A DNA stretch of 64,000 bases from Mobula hypostoma (lineage: Eukaryota), in the NCBI RefSeq assembly GCF_963921235.1, contig NC_086108.1, positions 49,602,001 through 49,666,000 on the forward strand. The letters run 5' to 3'. Positions 13,205 to 38,291 of the stretch are shown here, in pieces; position 1 is the first letter of the stretch; each line of letters opens with the position of its first letter. The position numbers and the translations under genes were made by a program. A model generated the notes under the pieces. That model searched no databases and was not told the DNA's origin. It saw nothing but the letters and a program-made list of their open reading frames with translations.

Positions 13205-13636
13205 TGGATCGGGACTACAGAGCGGCGTGGGAGCTGAATTCTGAAGGAAGGCAGTTTTTAAAAAAAACTTCTTTGAGTGCAAGAAGGATGAGACTGTGCA
13301 GGCACGTGACGTAACAGGACAGCACGGAGAGTTTAAAAAGGAGACCACCCTATACAGCGGGCAGCTGTCGGAGCGGGCAGCAGAGTGAGTGGTAGCAGAG
13401 TGTAGGGCTTTGGTTTCAACGGGCTTCGGCGGTAAATGGGAAGAGGCAAGAGCAAAGCGCCAACTCTTTTTTTTCTCCCCCTCCCCCCCTTTCGCAAATA
13501 GGCCCGGACAGACAGAAACAGCAGGGCTCTCACAGCTAACGGTATGAGTTAATGGTTTTAAAAGTTCATCTGTTTGGCGAGGTAAGTGGGTGAGTAGACT
13601 TATTTTTCCTGTTTCATTCCTGTAGAATTAGATAGC

Positions 13637-14956
13637 ATGCCTGCAGGGTTAGTGCTTTGTTCAGGGTGTCAGATGTGGGAATCTTGGAAGACCTCCAGCC
13701 TCCCTGATGGCCACATCTGCGCCAGGTGCACCGAGATGCAGCTCCTCAGAGACCGTGTTAGGGATCTGGAGCTGCAGCTTGATGACCTACTGCTTATCAG
13801 GAAAAGTGAAGAGGTGATAGACAGGAGCTACAGAGAGGTAGTCATCCCTACGCTACAGGGGTCAAAAAACAGGGTCACTGTCAAGCGAGGGAAGGGAAAT
13901 GCCAGGATAGTGGAGAGCACACCTGTGGCTGTCCCCCTCAGCAACAAATATCTTGTTCTGGATGCTGTTGAGGGGGATGACCTGACAGGGGACGCCCACG
14001 GTGACCAGGTCTCTGGCACTGAGCCTGGCGCTGTTGTGCAGGAGGGAAGGAGGGAGAAGAGGAATGCGGTAGTCATAGGGGATTCCATAGTCAGGGGAAC
14101 GGACAGGAGATTCTGTGAGCCTGATAGAGATACCCGCATGGTGTGTTGCCTCCCAGGTGCCAGGGTACGGGATGTCTTGGATCGGGTCCAGAATATTCTG
14201 AAGGGGGAGGGTGAGCAGCCAGTTGTCTTGGTACATGTTGGTACCAATGACATAGATAGGACAACGGAGGAGGTCCTGAAGAGAGATTTCTGGGAGTTAG
14301 GAAGGAAGCTGAGAAGCAGGACCTCCAGGGTAGTAATCTCGGGATTGCTACCTGTGCCACGTGCTAGCAAGGGCAAGAATGGTAGGATCAGGCAGATGAA
14401 TGTGTGGCTGAGAGACTGGTGCAGGGGGCAGGGCTTCAGATTCTTGGATAATTGGGATCTCTTCTGGGGGAAGTATGACCTGTTCAAAATGGACAGGTTA
14501 CACCTGAACCCGAAGGGGACCAATATCCTGGTGGGAAAGTTTAATAGAGCTGTTAAACTAATTTGGCAGGGGGATGGGAACCAGAATGATAGAGTGGAAG
14601 AAGGAGAAAACAGAAATAAATCTAAGATAGTGAGCAGTAAAGATGTCAGGAAAGACAGGCAGGTGATGGGGCAAATTTGTAGCCATTGGGATGAGTTGCA
14701 GTGCAATAAAGTTGCAGTGAAATCAAAGCAAAATGTCCCAAATACTGGTCTTAAGGTGTTATACCTAAATGCACGCAGCATAAGGAATAAAGTGGATGAT
14801 CTTGTTGTACAGCTACAGATTGGCAGGTATGATATTGTGGCCATTACTGAGACGTGGCTAAAGGATGCATGTCTCTGGGAGGTGAACGTCCAAGGATACA
14901 CAGTGTATCTGAAAGATAGGAAGGTACCAGAGGGGGAAGTGTGGTTTTATTGGTAA
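13637..14956 (+). pseudogene. CR1 ORF1 (zinc finger, leucine zipper, SGNH/GDSL esterase) fused in frame to the ORF2 N-terminus
   Basis: CSGC...CARC, LRDRVRDLELQL, VIGDSIVR, CLPGA, HVGTND, DRLHLN, then reads on into LKVLYLNARSIRNK...ITETWL. Confidence 0.9.
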
Positions 14957-17547
14957 GAAATGATATTAAATCATTAGAAAGAGGTGATATAGGATTGGAA
15001 GGTGCAGAATCTTTATGGGTTGAGCTAAGAAATTGCAGGGGTAAAAGGACCCTGATGGCAGTTATTTATAGGCCTCCAAACAGCTGCAGGGATGTGGACT
15101 ACAAATTACAACAGGAAATAGAAAAGACTTGTCAGAAGGGCAGTGTTATGATAATCGTGGGGGATTTTAACATGCGAGTGGATTGGGAAAATCAGGTCGG
15201 CACTGGATCTCAAGAGAGAGAATTTGTAGAATGTCTGCGAGATGGCTTTTTAGAACAGCTTGTTGTTGAGCCCACTAGGGGATCGGCTGTACTGGATTGG
15301 GTATTGTGTAATGAACCGGAGGTGATTAGAGAGATTGAGGTGAAGGAACCCTTAGGAGGCAGTGATCATAACATGATTGAGTTCACTGTGAAATTTTAAA
15401 AAGAGAAGCCGTAATCTGATGTGTCGGTATTTCAGTGGAGTAAAGGAAATTACAGTGGCATGAGAGAGGAACTGGCCAAAGTTGACTGGAAAGGGACACT
15501 GGCGGGAAAGATGGCAGAGCAGCAGTGGCTGGAGTTTATGTGAGAAGTGAGGAAGGTGCAAGACAGGTATATTCCAAAAAAAAAGAAATTTTCGAATGGA
15601 AAAAGGATGCAACCGTGGCTGACAAGAGAAGTCAAAGCCAAAGTTAAAGCAAAGGAGAGGGCATACAAGGAAGCAAAAATTAGTGAGAAGACAGAGGATT
15701 AGGAAGTTTTTAAAAGCTTACAGAAGGAAACTAAGAAGGTCATTAAGAGGGAAAAGATTAACTATTAAAGGAAGCTAGCAAATAATATCAAAGAGGATAC
15801 TAAAAGCTTTTCCAAGTATATAAAGAGTAAAAGACAGGTGAGAGTAGATATAGGACCGATAGAAAATGATGCTGGAGAAATTGTAATGGGAGATAAGGAG
15901 ATGGCGGAGGAACTGAACGAGTATTTTGCATCAGTCTTCACTGAGGAAGACATCAGCAGTATACCGGACACTCAAGGGTGGCAGAGAAGAGAAGTGTGTG
16001 CAGTCACAATTACGACAGAGAAAGTACTCAGGAAGCTGAATAGTCTAAAGGTAGATAAATCTCCTGGACCAGATGGAATGCACCCTCATGTTCTGAAGGA
16101 AGTAGCTGTGGAGATTGCGGAGGCATTAGCGATGATCTTTCAAAAGTCGATAGATTCTGGCATGGTTCCGGAGGACTGGAAGATTGCAAATGTCACTCCG
16201 CTATTTAAGAAGGGGGCAAGGAAGCAAAAAGGAAATTATAGACCTGTTAGCTTGACATCGGTGGTTGGGAAGTTGTTGGAGTCGATTGTCAAGGATGAGG
16301 TTACAGAGTACCCAGAGGCATATGACAAGATAGGCAGAACTCAGCATGGATTCCTTAAAGGAAAATCCTGCCTGACAAACCTATTACAACTTTTTTGAGG
16401 AAATTACAAGTAGGCTAGACAAGGGAGATGCAGTGGATGTTGTATATTTGGATTTTCAGAAGGCCTTTGACAAGGTGCCACACATGAGGCTACTTAACAA
16501 GATAAGACCCTATGGAATTGCGGGAAAGTTACCTACATGGATAGAGTGTTGGCTGATTGGCAGGAAACAGAGAGTGGGAATAAAGGGATCCTGTTCTGGT
16601 TGGCTGCCAGCTTCCAGTGGTGTTCCACAGGGGTCCGTGTTGGGGCCACTTCTTTTTACATTGTACATGAATGATTTGGATTATGGAATAGATGGCTTTG
16701 TGGCTAAGTTTGCTGATGATATGAAGATAGGTGGAGGGGCCGGTAGTGCTGAGGAAACGGAGAGTCTGCAGAGAGACTTGGATAGATTGGAAGAATGGGC
16801 AGAGAAGTGGCAAATGAAATACAATGTTGGAAAATGTATGGTTATGCACTTTGGCAGAAGAAATAAACGGGCAGACTATATTTAAATGGGGAGAGAATTC
16901 AAAGTTCTGAGATGCAATGGGACTTGGGAGTCCTCGTACAGGATACCCTTAAAGTTAACCTCCAGGTTGAGTCGGTGGTGAAGAAGGTGAATGCAATATT
17001 GGCATTCATTTCTAGAGGAATAGAGTATAGGAGCAGGGATGTGATGTTGAGGCTCTATAAGGCACTGGTGAGACCTCACTTGGAGTACTGTGGGCAGTTT
17101 TGGTCTCCTTATTTAAGAAAGGATGTGCTGACGTTGGAGAAGGTACAGAGAAAATTCACTAGAATGATTCCGGGAATGAGAGGGTTAACATATGAGGAAC
17201 ATTTGTCTGCTCTTGGACTGTATTCCTTGGAGTTTAGAAGAATGAGGGGAGACCTCATAGAAATGTTTTGTATTTTGAAAGGCATGGACAGAGTGGATGT
17301 GGCAAAGTGTTTCCCATGATGGGGGAGTCTAGTATGAGAGGGCATGACTTAAGGATTGAAGGACGCCCATTCAGAACAGAAATGCTAAGAAATTTTTTTT
17401 AGTCAGAGGGTGGTGAATCTATGGAATTTGTTGCCACGGGCAGCAGTGGAGGCCAAGTCATTGGGTGTATTTAAGGCAGAGATTGATAGGTATCTGAATA
17501 GCCAGGGCATCAAAGGTTATGGTGAGAAGGCGGGGGAGTGGGACTAA
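14749..17547 (+). pseudogene. CR1 ORF2 (AP endonuclease + reverse transcriptase), disrupted
   Basis: Consecutive ORF fragments 14941-15399, 15838-16398, 16433-16885 and 16912-17319 carry APE and RT motifs. Confidence 0.92.
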
Positions 17548-33600: not shown

Positions 33601-35527
33601 GCTCAAGGTTCAACGTTCATACTGATACTGTACCATAATGATATCAGCATAAAAGATTAGAAAATTCCACTGATATGCTTTATGAATAGCTTATCAGTGC
33701 TCTTATGACTCATTAGAAAGGGTGAGTCAAAACAAGGCAGGAAAAAGTGGAATGGCCATTCGTGGAGTGGCATTGTTGTAAGTGGGACAGTGTTGGAGTG
33801 GCTTTGGCTCACCAGGCTTGGGCGAAGTAAGTATCTGGTAAGTTTTACTTTTTCTTTCTTCTTTATTCTCTTTTCTTATCTGTTAGGGCACAATTAGTGC
33901 AGTGAGAATGGCTCCAGGGGCAGTGTTTTGTTCTGTGTGTGAGATGTGGGAATTCTGGGAGGCTTCCAGCCTCTTGGATAACCACATCTGCGCCACATGC
34001 ACCAAGCTGCAGATGTTCAGAGAACACATTATGGAACTGGAACTGCAGCTTGATGACCTTCGGTGAGGAGTTACAGGGAGGTTGCTCAAGGCAGGTGACT
34101 GGGTGACTCTCAGGAGAAGGAAGGTAAATGGGAAGCCAGTGCAGAATGCCCCGTGGCCGTTTCCCTCAATAATAAGTATACCACTTGACAACTTACCAGG
34201 GCAGAGCCGCAGTGTCCAGGTCTCTGGCACTCACTGGCTCAGAAGAGAAGAGGGGTGAAGAGAACTGCAGTAGTGATAGGAGATTCCATAGTCAGAGGAA
34301 CAGAGGAGACTCTGTGGGCACAATGGAGACAGGAGGATGGTATGTTGCCTCCCAGGTGCAGGGATCAGGGATGTCTCGGGTTGGGTACACAGCATTCGAA
34401 AGGAGGTGGGGAAGCAGTCAGATCTTGCTACATATCAGTACCAATGACACAGGCAGGAAAGCAGATGAGGGCCTGAAGAGAGATTTTAGGAAGCTAGGTG
34501 GAAAGCTAAAAGCATTACCTCTAAGGTAGTGATCTCCGGATTGCTGCTTGTGCCACGTGCCAGTGACGGTAAGAATAGGATAACTTGTCAGATGAATGCA
34601 GGGCTGAGGAACAGGGGTTAAGATTTATGGATCATTGGGATTTCTTCTGGGGGAAGAACAATGTATACAAAAGGGAAGGGAACCTAGGGGGACCAATACC
34701 CTTGCAGGTAGGTTTGCTAGAGCTGCTTGGGAGGGTTTAAACTAATTTGGCAGGGTGATAGGGCTGAGGATGGGGCAGTTGCTTTACAAACAGAGGCAGT
34801 GCATAGTGAGACTGCTAGCAAAGACAAGCCGATGACAGGGCACAAGTGCAGTCAACAGGATGAGCTGCAATGTAAAAGGGGGACAAAATCAGTAAGGGTG
34901 ATGAATACAGTACTGAAGGTGTTATATTTGAATGCACACAGTATACGAAATAAGGTAGATGAACTTGCACAGTTAGAGATTGACATGTAAGATGTTGTGG
35001 GCATCAGTGAGTCGTGGCTGAAAGAAGATTATAGCTGGGAACTTAATGTCCAAGGAGGCATATTGTATTGAAAGGACAGGCAGGTAGTCAAGAGAGGGTG
35101 GGATGGCTCTGTTGTTAAAAAAATGAAATCAAATCATTAGAAGAAATAATGTAGGATTGGAAGGCGTAGAATAATTTTGGGTTGAGCTAAGAAACTGCAA
35201 AAGGTAAATAAACGTTGATAAGAGTGATATACAGACCTCCAAACTGTAGCAAAGATGTGGTTTACAAATTACAATGAGAGATAGAAAATGCATGTCAAAA
35301 GGATAACATTATGATAATCATGGGGGATTTCAACATGCAGGTAGATTGGGAAAATCAGGTTGGTGCTGGATCCCAAGACGGGGAATTTATAGAATGCCAA
35401 TGAGATGTTTTTTTAGAGCAGCTTGTGGTAGAGCCTCAGCTATTCTGGATTGGCTATTGTGCAATGAAGCAGAATTGATTAGAGAGCTGAAGGTGAAGGA
35501 AGCATTAGGAGACAGTGATCATAATAT

Positions 35528-37072
35528 AACAACAGGAATTCTGCAGCTGCTGGAAATTCAAGCAACATACATCAAAGTTGCTGGTGAACGCAGCAGGCCA
35601 AGTAGCATCTATGGGAAGAGGTGCAGTCGACGTTTCAGGCCGAGACCCTTCGTCAGGACTAACTGAAGGAAGAGTGAGTAAGGGATTTGAAAGCTGGAGG
35701 GGAAGGGGAGATGCAAAATGATAGGAGAAGACAGGAGGGGGAGGGATAGAGCCGAGAGCTGGACAGGTGATAGGCAAAAGGGGATACGAGAGGATCATGG
35801 GACAGGAGGTCCGGGAAGAAAGACAAGGGGGGGGCGGTGACCCAGAGGATGGGCAAGAGGTATATTCAGAGGGACAGAGGGAGAAAAATGAGAGTGAGAG
35901 AAAGAATGTGTGCATAAAAATGAGTAACAGATGGGGTACGAGGGGGAGGTGGGGCCTTAGCAGAAGTTAGAGAAGTCAATGTTCATGCCATCAGGTTGGA
36001 GGCTACCCAGACGGAATATAAGGTGTTGTTCCTCCAACCTGAGTGTGGCTTCATCTTTACAGTAGAGGAGGCCGTGGATAGACATGTCAGAATGGGAATG
36101 GGATGTGGAATTAAAATGTGTGGCCATTGGGAGATCCTGCTTTCTCTGGCGGACAGAGCGTAGATGTTCAGCAAAGCGGTCTCCCAGTCTGCGTCGGGTC
36201 TCACCAATATATAAAAGGCCACATCGGGAGCACTGGACGCAGTACATCACCCCAGTCGACTCACAGGTGAAGTGATGCCTCACCTGGAAGGACGGTTTGG
36301 GGCCCTGAATGGTGGTAAGGGAGGAAGTGTAAGGGCATGTGTAGCACTTGTTCCGCTTACACGGATAAGTGCCAGGAGGGAGATCAGTGGGGAGGGATGG
36401 GGGGGACAAATGGACAAGGGAGTTGTGTAGGGAGCGATCCCTGCGGAATGCAGAGAGGGGGGGAGGGAAAGATGTGCTTAGTGGTGGGATCCCGTTGGAG
36501 GTGGCGGAAGTTATGGAGAATAATATGTTGGACCCGGAGGCTGGTGAGGTGGTAGGTGAGGACCAGGGGAACCCTATTCCTAGTGGGGTGGTGGGAGGAT
36601 GGAGTGAGAGCAGATGTACGTGAAATGAGGGAGATGCGTTTAAGAGCAGAGTTGATAGTGGAGGAAGGGAAGCCCCTTTCTTTAAAAAATGAAGACATCT
36701 CCCTCGTCCTAGAATGAAAAGCCTCATCCTGAGAGCAGATGCGGCTGAGATGGAGGAATTGCGAGAAGGGGATGGCATTTTTGCAAGAGACAGGGTGAGA
36801 AGAGGAATAGTCCAGATAGCTGTGAGAATCAGTAGGCTTATAGTAGACATCAGTGGATAAGCTGTCTCCAGAGACAGAGACAGAAAGATCTAGAAAGGGG
36901 AGGGAGGTGTCGGAAATGGACCAGGTAAACTTGAGGGCAGGGTGAAAGTTGGAGGCAAAGTTAATAAAGTCAACGAGTTCTGCATGCGTGCAGGAAGCAG
37001 CGCCAATGCAGTCGTCGATGTAGCGAAGGAAAAGTGGGGAACAGATACCAGAATAGGCACGGAACATAGATT
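35528..37072 (-). mobile_element. Young 5'-truncated Penelope-like retroelement (RT C-terminal part, Zn finger, GIY-YIG endonuclease, hammerhead-bearing terminus)
   Basis: ORF 36384-37067 LFLRYIDDCIG/LPFLDL/YYKPTDSHSYL. After a frameshift in a C-run: PCKRNKCYTC and VMYCVQCSRCGLLYIGETRRRLGDRFAEH to the stop at 35957. 13-bp TSD GTGATCATAATAT at 35515-35527 and 37073-37085. Confidence 0.95.
35625..35660 (-). ncRNA. Minimal type I hammerhead ribozyme motif, intact core
   Basis: Minus strand reads AGTC-CTGACGA-AGGGTCTCGGCCT-GAAA-CGTC-GACT. Confidence 0.75.
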
Positions 37073-38291
37073 GTGATCATAATATGATAGAATTCACCCC
37101 TCAATTTGAGAAGGAGAAGCTAAAGTCAGATGTATCAATATTACAATAGAGTAAAGAGAATTGCAGAGGTACGAGGGAGAAGCTGACCAAAACTGATTGG
37201 AAGAGAACCCTAGCACGGATGACAGCAGAGCAGCAATGGCTGTAATTTCTGGGAGCAATCGGAAGACACACAATAGATACATCCCAAATAAGAAGAGGTA
37301 TTCTGACGGCAGGATGACTCAGCTGTGGCTGACAAGAGAAGTCAAATCCAACATAAAGCCAAAACGAGGGCAAATAACAGAGCAAAAATGAGTGGGAAGT
37401 TAGAGGATTGGGAGGCTTTTAAAAATCAGCAGAAGACGACTAAAGAGTCATAAAGAAGGAAAAGATGGAATATGAAGGAAAGCTGGCCAATAATATTAAA
37501 GAGGATACCAAAAGTCTCTTCAGATATATAAAGACTAAAAGAGAGGTGAGAGTAGATATTGGACGCTGGAAAGGTAGTAATAGGGGAAAAGGAAATTGCG
37601 GACGAACTGAATAAGTATTTTGCATCAGCCTTTACTGTAGAAGACACTTGCAGTACGACGGAGGTTCAAGAGTGTCGGGGGCAGAAGTGAGTGCAGTAGC
37701 CATTACTAGGGAGAAGGTACTTGAGAAACTGAAAGATCTGAAGATAGTTAAGTCACCTGGACCAAGATTTCTGAAAGAGGTGGCTAAAGAGATTGTGGAG
37801 GTATTATTAATGATCTTTCAAGAATCAGTAGATTCTGGCACAGTTCCAGAGGATTGGAGAATTGCAAATGACACTCCACTCTTCAAGAATGGAGACAGGC
37901 AGAAGAAAGGAAATTACAGGCCAGTTAGTCTGACCTCAGTGGTTGGAAAGATGTTTGAGTCGATTGATAAAGATGTGGTTTTAGGGTACTAGGAGTCACA
38001 TGATAAAATAGGCCAAATTCAGCATGGTTTTCCTATAGGAAAATCTAGCATGACAAATCTGTTAGAATTATTTGAAGAAATAACAAGCAGGAGAATCGGA
38101 TGTTGTGTACCTGGGTTTTCAGAAGGCCTTTGACAAGGTGCCACACGTAAGGCTGCTTAACAAGTTAAGCTATTACAGAAAAGATACTAGCATGGATAGT
38201 GCATTGGCTGATTGACAGGAGGCAAGGAGTGGGAATAAAGGGAGCCTTTTCTGGTTGGCTGCCAGTGACAAATGGTATTCACTTCTTTTTA

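Follow-up and report, generated by a model that had tools for sequence, protein, structure and literature searches.

The junction between the first and second open reading frames (ORF1 and ORF2) of a CR1 long interspersed nuclear element (LINE), two defective copies of which lie in a 64,000-nucleotide (nt) stretch of the Mobula hypostoma genome (contig NC_086108.1, positions 49,602,001 to 49,666,000; hereafter the window), is probably a programmed -1 ribosomal frameshift signal that would give an ORF1-ORF2 fusion protein. As part of the best explanation of the sequences compared here, we propose that this signal is ancestral to CR1 elements whose ORF1 encodes an esterase. The anatomy of the junction (a slippery heptamer, U_UUA_AAC, abutting the ORF1 stop codon), its conservation at the level of nucleotides, the open -1 frame and, in several families, the lack of a usable ORF2 AUG are directly visible. 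An earlier note on the window had suggested that this CR1 family may make a Gag-Pol-like fusion by -1 frameshifting; the comparative evidence supports that suggestion, in which the slip itself is the part that we infer.

The junction in the window

The nature of the element is indicated by domain matches. An intact ORF1 of one of the two families found in the window (family B; 311 amino acids (aa), locus L037) matches Lipase_GDSL_2 / SGNH esterase with E 3e-12, above the curated cut-off; in intact relatives the -1 frame that starts at the heptamer carries an Exo_endo_phos domain; and a reverse transcriptase (RT) domain, RVT_1, is matched at 16376-16885 of the window (E 2.8e-22). Judging from these matches, the combination of an esterase-type ORF1 with an endonuclease/RT ORF2 is the esterase-ORF1 architecture of CR1-group LINEs. 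An excerpt of PMC13343379 describes esterase ORF1s in both CR1 and L2, and the name CR1 is used here provisionally, following the label given by the earlier note and homologues named from CR1-rich taxa.

In the window copy of family A, the decayed 3' end of the ORF1 for the esterase-type protein (ORF1p) occupies 34689..34745 on the plus strand and translates to GTNTLAGRFARAAWEGLN*, ending in ...EGLN followed by TAA. The letters at 34733-34745 are GGGTTTAAACTAA. They hold two overlapping heptamers, the family-specific G_GGT_TTA (reading GGGTTTA, 34733..34739, plus strand) and T_TTA_AAC (reading TTTAAAC, 34736..34742, plus strand), which is conserved across families; both are in ORF1 phase, as follows from the translation of 34689-34745. 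The stop TAA (34743..34745, plus strand) abuts the heptamer. It is followed on the same strand by a 7-nt spacer, TTTGGCA (34746..34752), whose length is fixed across lineages and whose sequence is variable, and by the remnant of a G-run (34753..34755) that in the family form reads G5-AT-GGG and has lost 15 nt here, in a deletion that this copy has alone or shares with few others. Read from the heptamer (34736..34990, plus strand), the -1 frame continues as FKLIWQGD...LKVLYLNAHSIRNK... through a linker to the start of the endonuclease, with the first endonuclease motif, LKVLYLNAHS, at 34913-34942, and ends at a stop (34988-34990) that reflects decay. This frame is open over 34721-34990, which is 89 aa from stop to stop and 85 aa counted from the heptamer. 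Coordinates and translation agree with the in-phase heptamers before the stop and with the open -1 frame into LKVLYLNAHS that the earlier note had described.

The family-A copy is 77-84% identical to the 39 other scored copies (of 6330 first-look candidates), and on this comparison it is an old, decayed example of a general feature. A G-rich tract had been reported after the stop in both window copies; the G-run does recur as a feature, but 15 nt of the tract, present in most family-A members in the alignment, are missing from the window copy. Among the rows of family A, the 12-mer GGTTTAAACTAA is intact in 10/30 and TTTAAACTAA in 16/30, a partial loss in old copies that is expected because neutral mutation after insertion predicts such decay.

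The window copy of family B (13598..14956, plus strand) has ORF1 joined to the ORF2 frame in a single 452-aa open frame that crosses the linker and enters the endonuclease. Between 14552 and 14553 the copy has a private deletion of 11 nt, which takes the first T of the heptamer and leaves TTAAAC at 14553-14558 and the G-run at 14569-14578; among 30 aligned family-B copies the deletion is found in the window copy alone. The remaining copies read ...GTT AGG GAG GGT TTA AAC TAA TTT GGC AGG GGG ATG GG, the relatives of the window copy being 94-95% identical to it, and GGTTTAAACTAA is intact in 26 of the 30 rows. By this comparison the join of ORF1 and ORF2 is an accident. The earlier note had pointed to this copy as a second one that keeps the linker frame open, which the 452-aa frame bears out; its heptamer is lost, and the private deletion rules it out as an independent intact example. 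The copy is a natural 'hard-wired fusion', yet otherwise broken, with a stop inside the endonuclease.

Conservation of the heptamer

Six further families (C-H) were recovered by searching the genome with ORF1 proteins of other species. The codon preceding TTA (codon -3) is ACT, with the stop TAG, in family C (L112-L121); GCT with TAG in family D (L123, L125, L126, L130); GGT or AGT with TAG in family E (L122, L124, L127, L129); AGT or TGT with TAA in family F (L128, L131); GAT with TAA in family G (L132-L135, L139); and GTT, GCT or ACT with TAA in family H (L136-L138). In all eight families (A-H) NNT TTA AAC and a stop stand in ORF1 phase, ORF2 is in frame -1 and the peptide read in that frame starts with FKL. 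The stop, whether TAA, TAG or TGA, abuts the heptamer in 14/14 representatives. The earlier note had asked whether TTTAAAC and the stop are kept in ORF1 phase elsewhere; they are, in 8/8 families and in three metagenome contigs described below, with all three stop codons in use.

Codon -3 takes seven forms across these sequences (GGT, ACT, GCT, AGT, TGT, GAT and GTT, encoding G, T, A, S, C, D and V), while its third base is invariably T, the leucine codon invariably TTA and the asparagine codon invariably AAC, in the families and in the metagenome contigs alike. As codon -3 encodes different amino acids and yet never loses its final T, it is the nucleotides, not the protein, that are constrained: with seven NNT codons and leucine only as TTA, the heptamer is conserved beyond what the encoded protein needs. 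The overlapping G_GGU_UUA, which had been put forward as a shared feature, does not hold as a conserved site, as it occurs in no families but A, B and E, those with GGT at codon -3.

Family C is the youngest family. The 127 ORF1 copies scored for it show 98-100% identity and contain no stops, so that the layout belongs to a recently active element; the similarity of the copies suggests that the family is currently or very recently active. In its 342-codon ORF1 frame the terminal TTTAAAC is the sole in-phase heptamer of the form X_XXY_YYZ.

These data bear on the trivial explanation that the pattern arose by chance in decayed repeats and has no function. Both window copies are defective, and only 16 of the 30 old family-A copies retain TTTAAACTAA, as such an explanation would have it. 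The same layout is nevertheless common to eight family majority sequences, to three foreign contigs and to a family with more than 100 near-identical intact copies, and we regard chance as excluded, with next to no probability left to it, because the junction recurs.

The ORF2 frame and its start codon

The ORF2 (-1) frame opens only 13-58 nt upstream of the ORF1 stop, and any change of frame is therefore confined to an interval containing the heptamer. The earlier note had also proposed that the linker be searched for stops in the -1 frame. Over the 46-77 codons that separate the heptamer from the first endonuclease motif there are none in 8/8 family majority sequences, compared with 2-9 stops each in frames 0 and +1, and shuffled linkers were open in 0.2-4% of 2000 trials. 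The ratio of nonsynonymous to synonymous substitution rates (dN/dS) in the linker, a weak test made on protein-guided alignments of 11 family pairs (three pairs with family D returned no value and B-H was saturated), was 0.20-0.49 in 6/7 computable pairs, values that mostly support translation of the linker.

The first in-frame methionine lies at codon 38 in family A, 39 in B, 35 in H, 11 in F and 4 in G, and families C, D and E have no in-frame AUG before the endonuclease. In family C, 6/10 fetched loci have an ORF2 that stays open up to the locus end, and in 6/6 of these open copies the ORF2 frame has its first methionine at residue 207, which lies at the GDFN motif, past the N-terminal catalytic motifs. 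Conventional AUG initiation is excluded for this family because a protein begun at residue 207 could not be a working endonuclease. The earlier note had proposed a test for the lack of a conserved ORF2 AUG and had observed that the AUGs of the two window copies are not at identical positions; both hold. A conserved ORF2 AUG is lacking, being missing in 3/8 families, with residue 207 the first methionine in family C; and the AUGs of the two window families are offset by one codon, other families having none. The linker of family C has an extra ~20 codons that repeat a G-D-G-N region, with the G-run still at +10.

The junction outside this genome

A profile built from 76 ORF1 proteins gave 51 metagenome loci, 13 of which combine an esterase ORF1 with an endonuclease ORF2. 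The same junction of T_TTA_AAC and a stop is present in 3/13: in L066, where ORF1 ends in ...RALN and the letters are GCT TTA AAC TAG, with ORF2 in the -1 frame opening 13 nt ahead of the stop; in L061 (GCT TTA AAC TAG), whose ORF1 is decayed; and in L067 (GCT TTA AAC TGA). The other 10 loci have no TTTAAAC and are different kinds of LINE. A scan of genome contigs gave 13 loci, with a downstream endonuclease only in L140, a different LINE without the motif.

Among the matches listed, 82/120 ORF1 homologues end in -LN, in hosts that comprise rays, sharks, a bichir, a mormyrid, frogs, turtles, lizards and a gull, and those that do not end in this way are mostly truncated or chimeric models. The residue before LN is compatible with an NNU codon in 81/83 (the query counted). 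Gene models that read across the junction contain ...GGFKL... in a ray and, heading the ORF2-frame part, SFKLDSKGEGD in a stork; the predicted stork and ray proteins share FKL and G-x-G at the start of the ORF2 frame.

Variation around the family-C junction was assessed in L119 against contigs, not reads, from four runs of four other organisms, at a likeness of at least 80%, a comparison in which more divergent copies fail to align. No variant at or above 10% was found in 2424-2459 of L119, which spans the heptamer (2427-2433), the stop, the spacer and the G-run, and the flanks had 20 variable places in 2361-2423 (63 nt) and five in 2460-2499 (40 nt). Loose contig ends from other families likewise end in GGCTTTAAA, AGAGTTTAAA or GGGTTTAAAC. 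The family-C junction was not found in runs recorded as RNA; the four runs compared are contigs of unspecified library type, with no joints, and have no bearing on expression or splicing.

Some metagenome loci, partly from insect gut, are of another type. L072, L080, L090 and L104 are esterase-ORF1 LINEs with ORF1 and ORF2 in the same frame and a single stop between them (TGA, and TAG in L072), the ORF2 frame opening at the next codon, an arrangement that suggests stop-codon readthrough rather than frameshifting in these elements. CR1 ORF1 sequence is also present in the protein records P0019, P0034, P0075/P0076, P0124 and P0125, which carry names such as Pseudomonas aeruginosa SGNH hydrolase, ribosomal protein S24 isoform, TMEM204 isoforms, hydroxyacid oxidase 2 and others, and which are likely to reflect contamination or chimeric gene models.

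The region downstream of the stop codon

A run of at least four G begins exactly 10 nt after the heptamer in 13/14 representatives and 12 nt after it in family F. After the stop the shared geometry is 7 nt of variable sequence, G4-11, 1-2 nt and G3-5. A spacer of fixed length and variable sequence before a conserved motif is, by analogy, how spacer and stimulator behave at frameshift sites. Atkins et al. [quoted passage not shown]

The earlier note had asked for a hairpin, pseudoknot or G-quadruplex downstream of the stop. We found no conserved helix, and a G-quadruplex in some lineages only; as a universal stimulator it is ruled out, not being predicted in family D, L066 or L067. In L115, a family-C copy, the run of six G is one G short, and ORF2 beyond that point is in the +1 frame with respect to ORF1; such indels are likely to be frequent in a homopolymer G-run.

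Evidence against a frameshift and alternative readings

Several observations weigh against a frameshift at this junction. Folding of the 90 nt from the stop in 15 natural junctions revealed no shared hairpin or pseudoknot, with z-scores of the minimum free energy between -2.0 and +1.5 relative to shuffles; the folded region is purine-rich, with 4-24 C (4-17 in all junctions except one). A G-quadruplex at the G-run is predicted in families B, C and F, in one of three family-A copies and in L061 only. The spacer of a -1 site is usually 5-9 nt, so that one of 10 nt is longer than usual. Nor was a hard-wired lineage with a single-ORF fusion found among 19 longer proteins, all of them single-member and mostly chimeric gene models. 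The linker dN/dS of the pair C-G is 0.97, and, since the lineages are related, the counts of recurrence are not counts of independent events. The remaining two observations concern the end of ORF1p and the start of ORF2, and each leads to an alternative.

The -LN C-terminus could be retained for a function of ORF1p. On a reading without any recoding, which strikes us as quite improbable, the C-terminal -LN would be functional, the G-run would act as an RNA element for packaging, protein binding or localisation, and ORF2 would be made by internal entry, leaky scanning or from a separate transcript. Such a reading could draw on the fact that -LN is conserved among ORF1 proteins that are only 30-35% identical overall, on the in-frame AUG that families A, B and H keep 35-39 codons downstream (in A and B at nearly the same place) and on the lack of the stable structure that is typical of frameshift stimulators. 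It fails to explain why TTA is constant, why NNT holds across seven codons and why ORF2 is constantly open in the -1 frame, and it leaves family C with no methionine before residue 207 of the ORF2 frame.

A termination-coupled restart would fit the TAATG junction of family G, whose ATG is in the ORF2 frame, and also L061, where an ORF2-frame ATG follows the stop by two codons. Ribosomes that have finished ORF1 would in that case stay on the RNA and restart nearby in the ORF2 frame, at an AUG or a non-AUG codon, in a way resembling mammalian L1 or the UAAUG coupling of SART1, and the G-run would help to hold the ribosome. The invariant position of the ORF1 stop beside a conserved block speaks for termination-reinitiation, as does the codon-11 ATG of family F. 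There are also precedents, as far as the excerpts of the two sources go: SART1 UAAUG coupling depends on downstream RNA structure (Odon et al. 2013, PMC3708506) and initiation of L1 ORF2 is independent of AUG (Atkins et al. 2016, PMC5009743). A restart needs no in-phase X_XXY_YYZ heptamer, yet the heptamer and the silent T of codon -3 are the most strictly conserved letters of the junction. It would moreover work in any frame, whereas ORF2 is always in the -1 frame, in eight families and in L066. Families C, D and E and L066 have neither an AUG nor a common near-cognate codon after the stop, and only in family G and L061 does an ATG of the ORF2 frame lie a few codons or less from the ORF1 stop, so that a restart codon at or near the stop is not shared. 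A G-run 7 nt past the stop would also lie inside the mRNA channel of the terminating ribosome, unlike the tethering motifs of caliciviruses, which are upstream. On balance we consider termination-reinitiation, the main alternative and in an AUG-independent form, unlikely as the general route, although less so than a reading without recoding. Family G, with its TAATG junction, could use either route to ORF2.

One other feature of the window touches the same elements. At 35957-37076, on the minus strand, a 310-aa open frame lies inside a decayed CR1 copy and has a weak GIY-YIG match (E 0.0027, below the Pfam cut-off); the frame probably represents part of a Penelope-like element that was inserted into the CR1.

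Discussion

The layout of the junction is best accounted for by -1 frameshifting. From it we infer the slip, its efficiency, the role of the G-run and the fusion as the active form of ORF2. The majority of ribosomes would terminate at the stop after ...NNU UUA AAC and release ORF1p, and a minority would slip back by one base on U_UUA_AAC, with tRNA-Leu moving from UUA to UUU and tRNA-Asn from AAC to AAA. The slipped ribosomes would then read CUN... in the ORF2 frame and make a fusion of ORF1p, linker, endonuclease and RT, analogous to Gag-Pol, and slippage would set a low, fixed ratio of ORF2 to ORF1. The G-run, 10 nt after the heptamer and 7 nt after the stop, would be the likely 3' stimulator. 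Since ORF1p of the related element ZfL2-1 self-associates via an N-terminal coiled coil, as an excerpt of PMC3905857 reports, the fusion could join assemblies of ORF1p as Gag-Pol joins Gag.

A broader proposal, which we hold only tentatively and think somewhat doubtful, is that CR1-group LINEs have one -1 signal that predates the split between cartilaginous fish and birds, and that its stimulator is a linear G5-N(1-2)-G3 at a fixed distance, not a helix. A linear G motif may act through a bound host protein that recognises G-runs, or through ORF1p itself; were ORF1p to bind the G-run, the ORF2:ORF1 ratio would be self-regulating. Alternatively, the -1 slip could be coupled to termination, with the A site occupied by the stop, the P site by AAC and the E site by UUA; the G-run would then lie at the classical distance of 7 nt.

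How ORF2 of a LINE is translated from bicistronic RNA is a long-standing question that has been answered for few elements (L1, SART1), and not by frameshifting. In most non-mammalian vertebrates the dominant retrotransposons are CR1-group elements, and these are the main LINEs in birds, reptiles, many fishes and cartilaginous fishes. CR1 papers and reviews, in the portions available, say no more than that there are 'two ORFs', without a mechanism for their translation. We found no description of a CR1 frameshift in the searchable literature; the founding papers (Haas 1997, Kajikawa 1997, Kapitonov & Jurka 2003) or Repbase notes may mention an overlap. No statement of a CR1 frameshift occurs in the accessible parts of PMC5009743, PMC13343379, PMC4120745, PMC3708506, PMC3905857, PMC4255032, PMC4316615, PMC11835228 and PMC8665684, and in the accessible part of the review by Atkins et al. 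2016 (PMC5009743) the non-LTR (long terminal repeat) elements named are HeT-A, TART and L1 only, 'CR1' being absent. If our proposal is true, an ORF1p-ORF2p fusion as the active enzyme would change the picture of CR1 particles, and a stimulator that is free of helices may widen the known range of frameshift signals. For annotation, an 'intact CR1' should be judged across the -1 junction and not by an ORF2 AUG.

Among the closest known systems are other LINEs. Mammalian L1 and silkworm SART1 solve the same problem, that of making ORF2 from a bicistronic LINE RNA, according to excerpts of PMC3708506 and PMC5009743. These elements need no slippery heptamer and make a separate ORF2p, whereas the core of the CR1 junction is a heptamer and several families have no AUG; the TAATG of family G is the arrangement described for SART1 coupling. 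The Dictyostelium elements TRE5-A and TRE3-A differ in belonging to a protist LINE clade with another type of ORF1, while CR1 is a vertebrate group of elements whose proposed signal is conserved across very distant hosts.

Fusions made by frameshifting are standard in retroviruses and LTR elements. Gag-Pol resembles what we propose for CR1 in having an abundant first protein, a rare enzyme fusion and a short overlap with a heptanucleotide shift site, and pol is in the -1 frame in 28/51 animal LTR retroelements surveyed, as stated in an excerpt of Atkins et al. 2016 (PMC5009743). It differs in that CR1 is a non-LTR element and its ORF1p an SGNH-type esterase protein rather than Gag. To our knowledge, there is no protease that separates a CR1 fusion.

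The elements of the proposed CR1 signal have their counterparts in RNA viruses. The C-rich motif of arteriviruses and the 2A protein of cardioviruses are cases of protein-dependent or linear 3' stimulators; as would hold for CR1, the stimulator is farther than usual from the shift site and a stable helix is unnecessary, although the CR1 motif is G-rich and starts at 10 nt, and we know of no factor that binds it. A 0-frame stop immediately 3' of the heptamer is found at the shift sites of luteoviruses and dianthoviruses, plant RNA viruses that differ in using long-range structures as stimulators. The -1 site between ORF1a and ORF1b of coronaviruses is U_UUA_AAC followed a few nt downstream by a pseudoknot. 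It has the identical heptamer in the upstream phase and an enzyme ORF in the -1 frame, just as CR1 does, and differs in its pseudoknot stimulator, whereas the CR1 junction, in a cellular retrotransposon, has an abutting stop and a G-run at 10 nt with no conserved helix.

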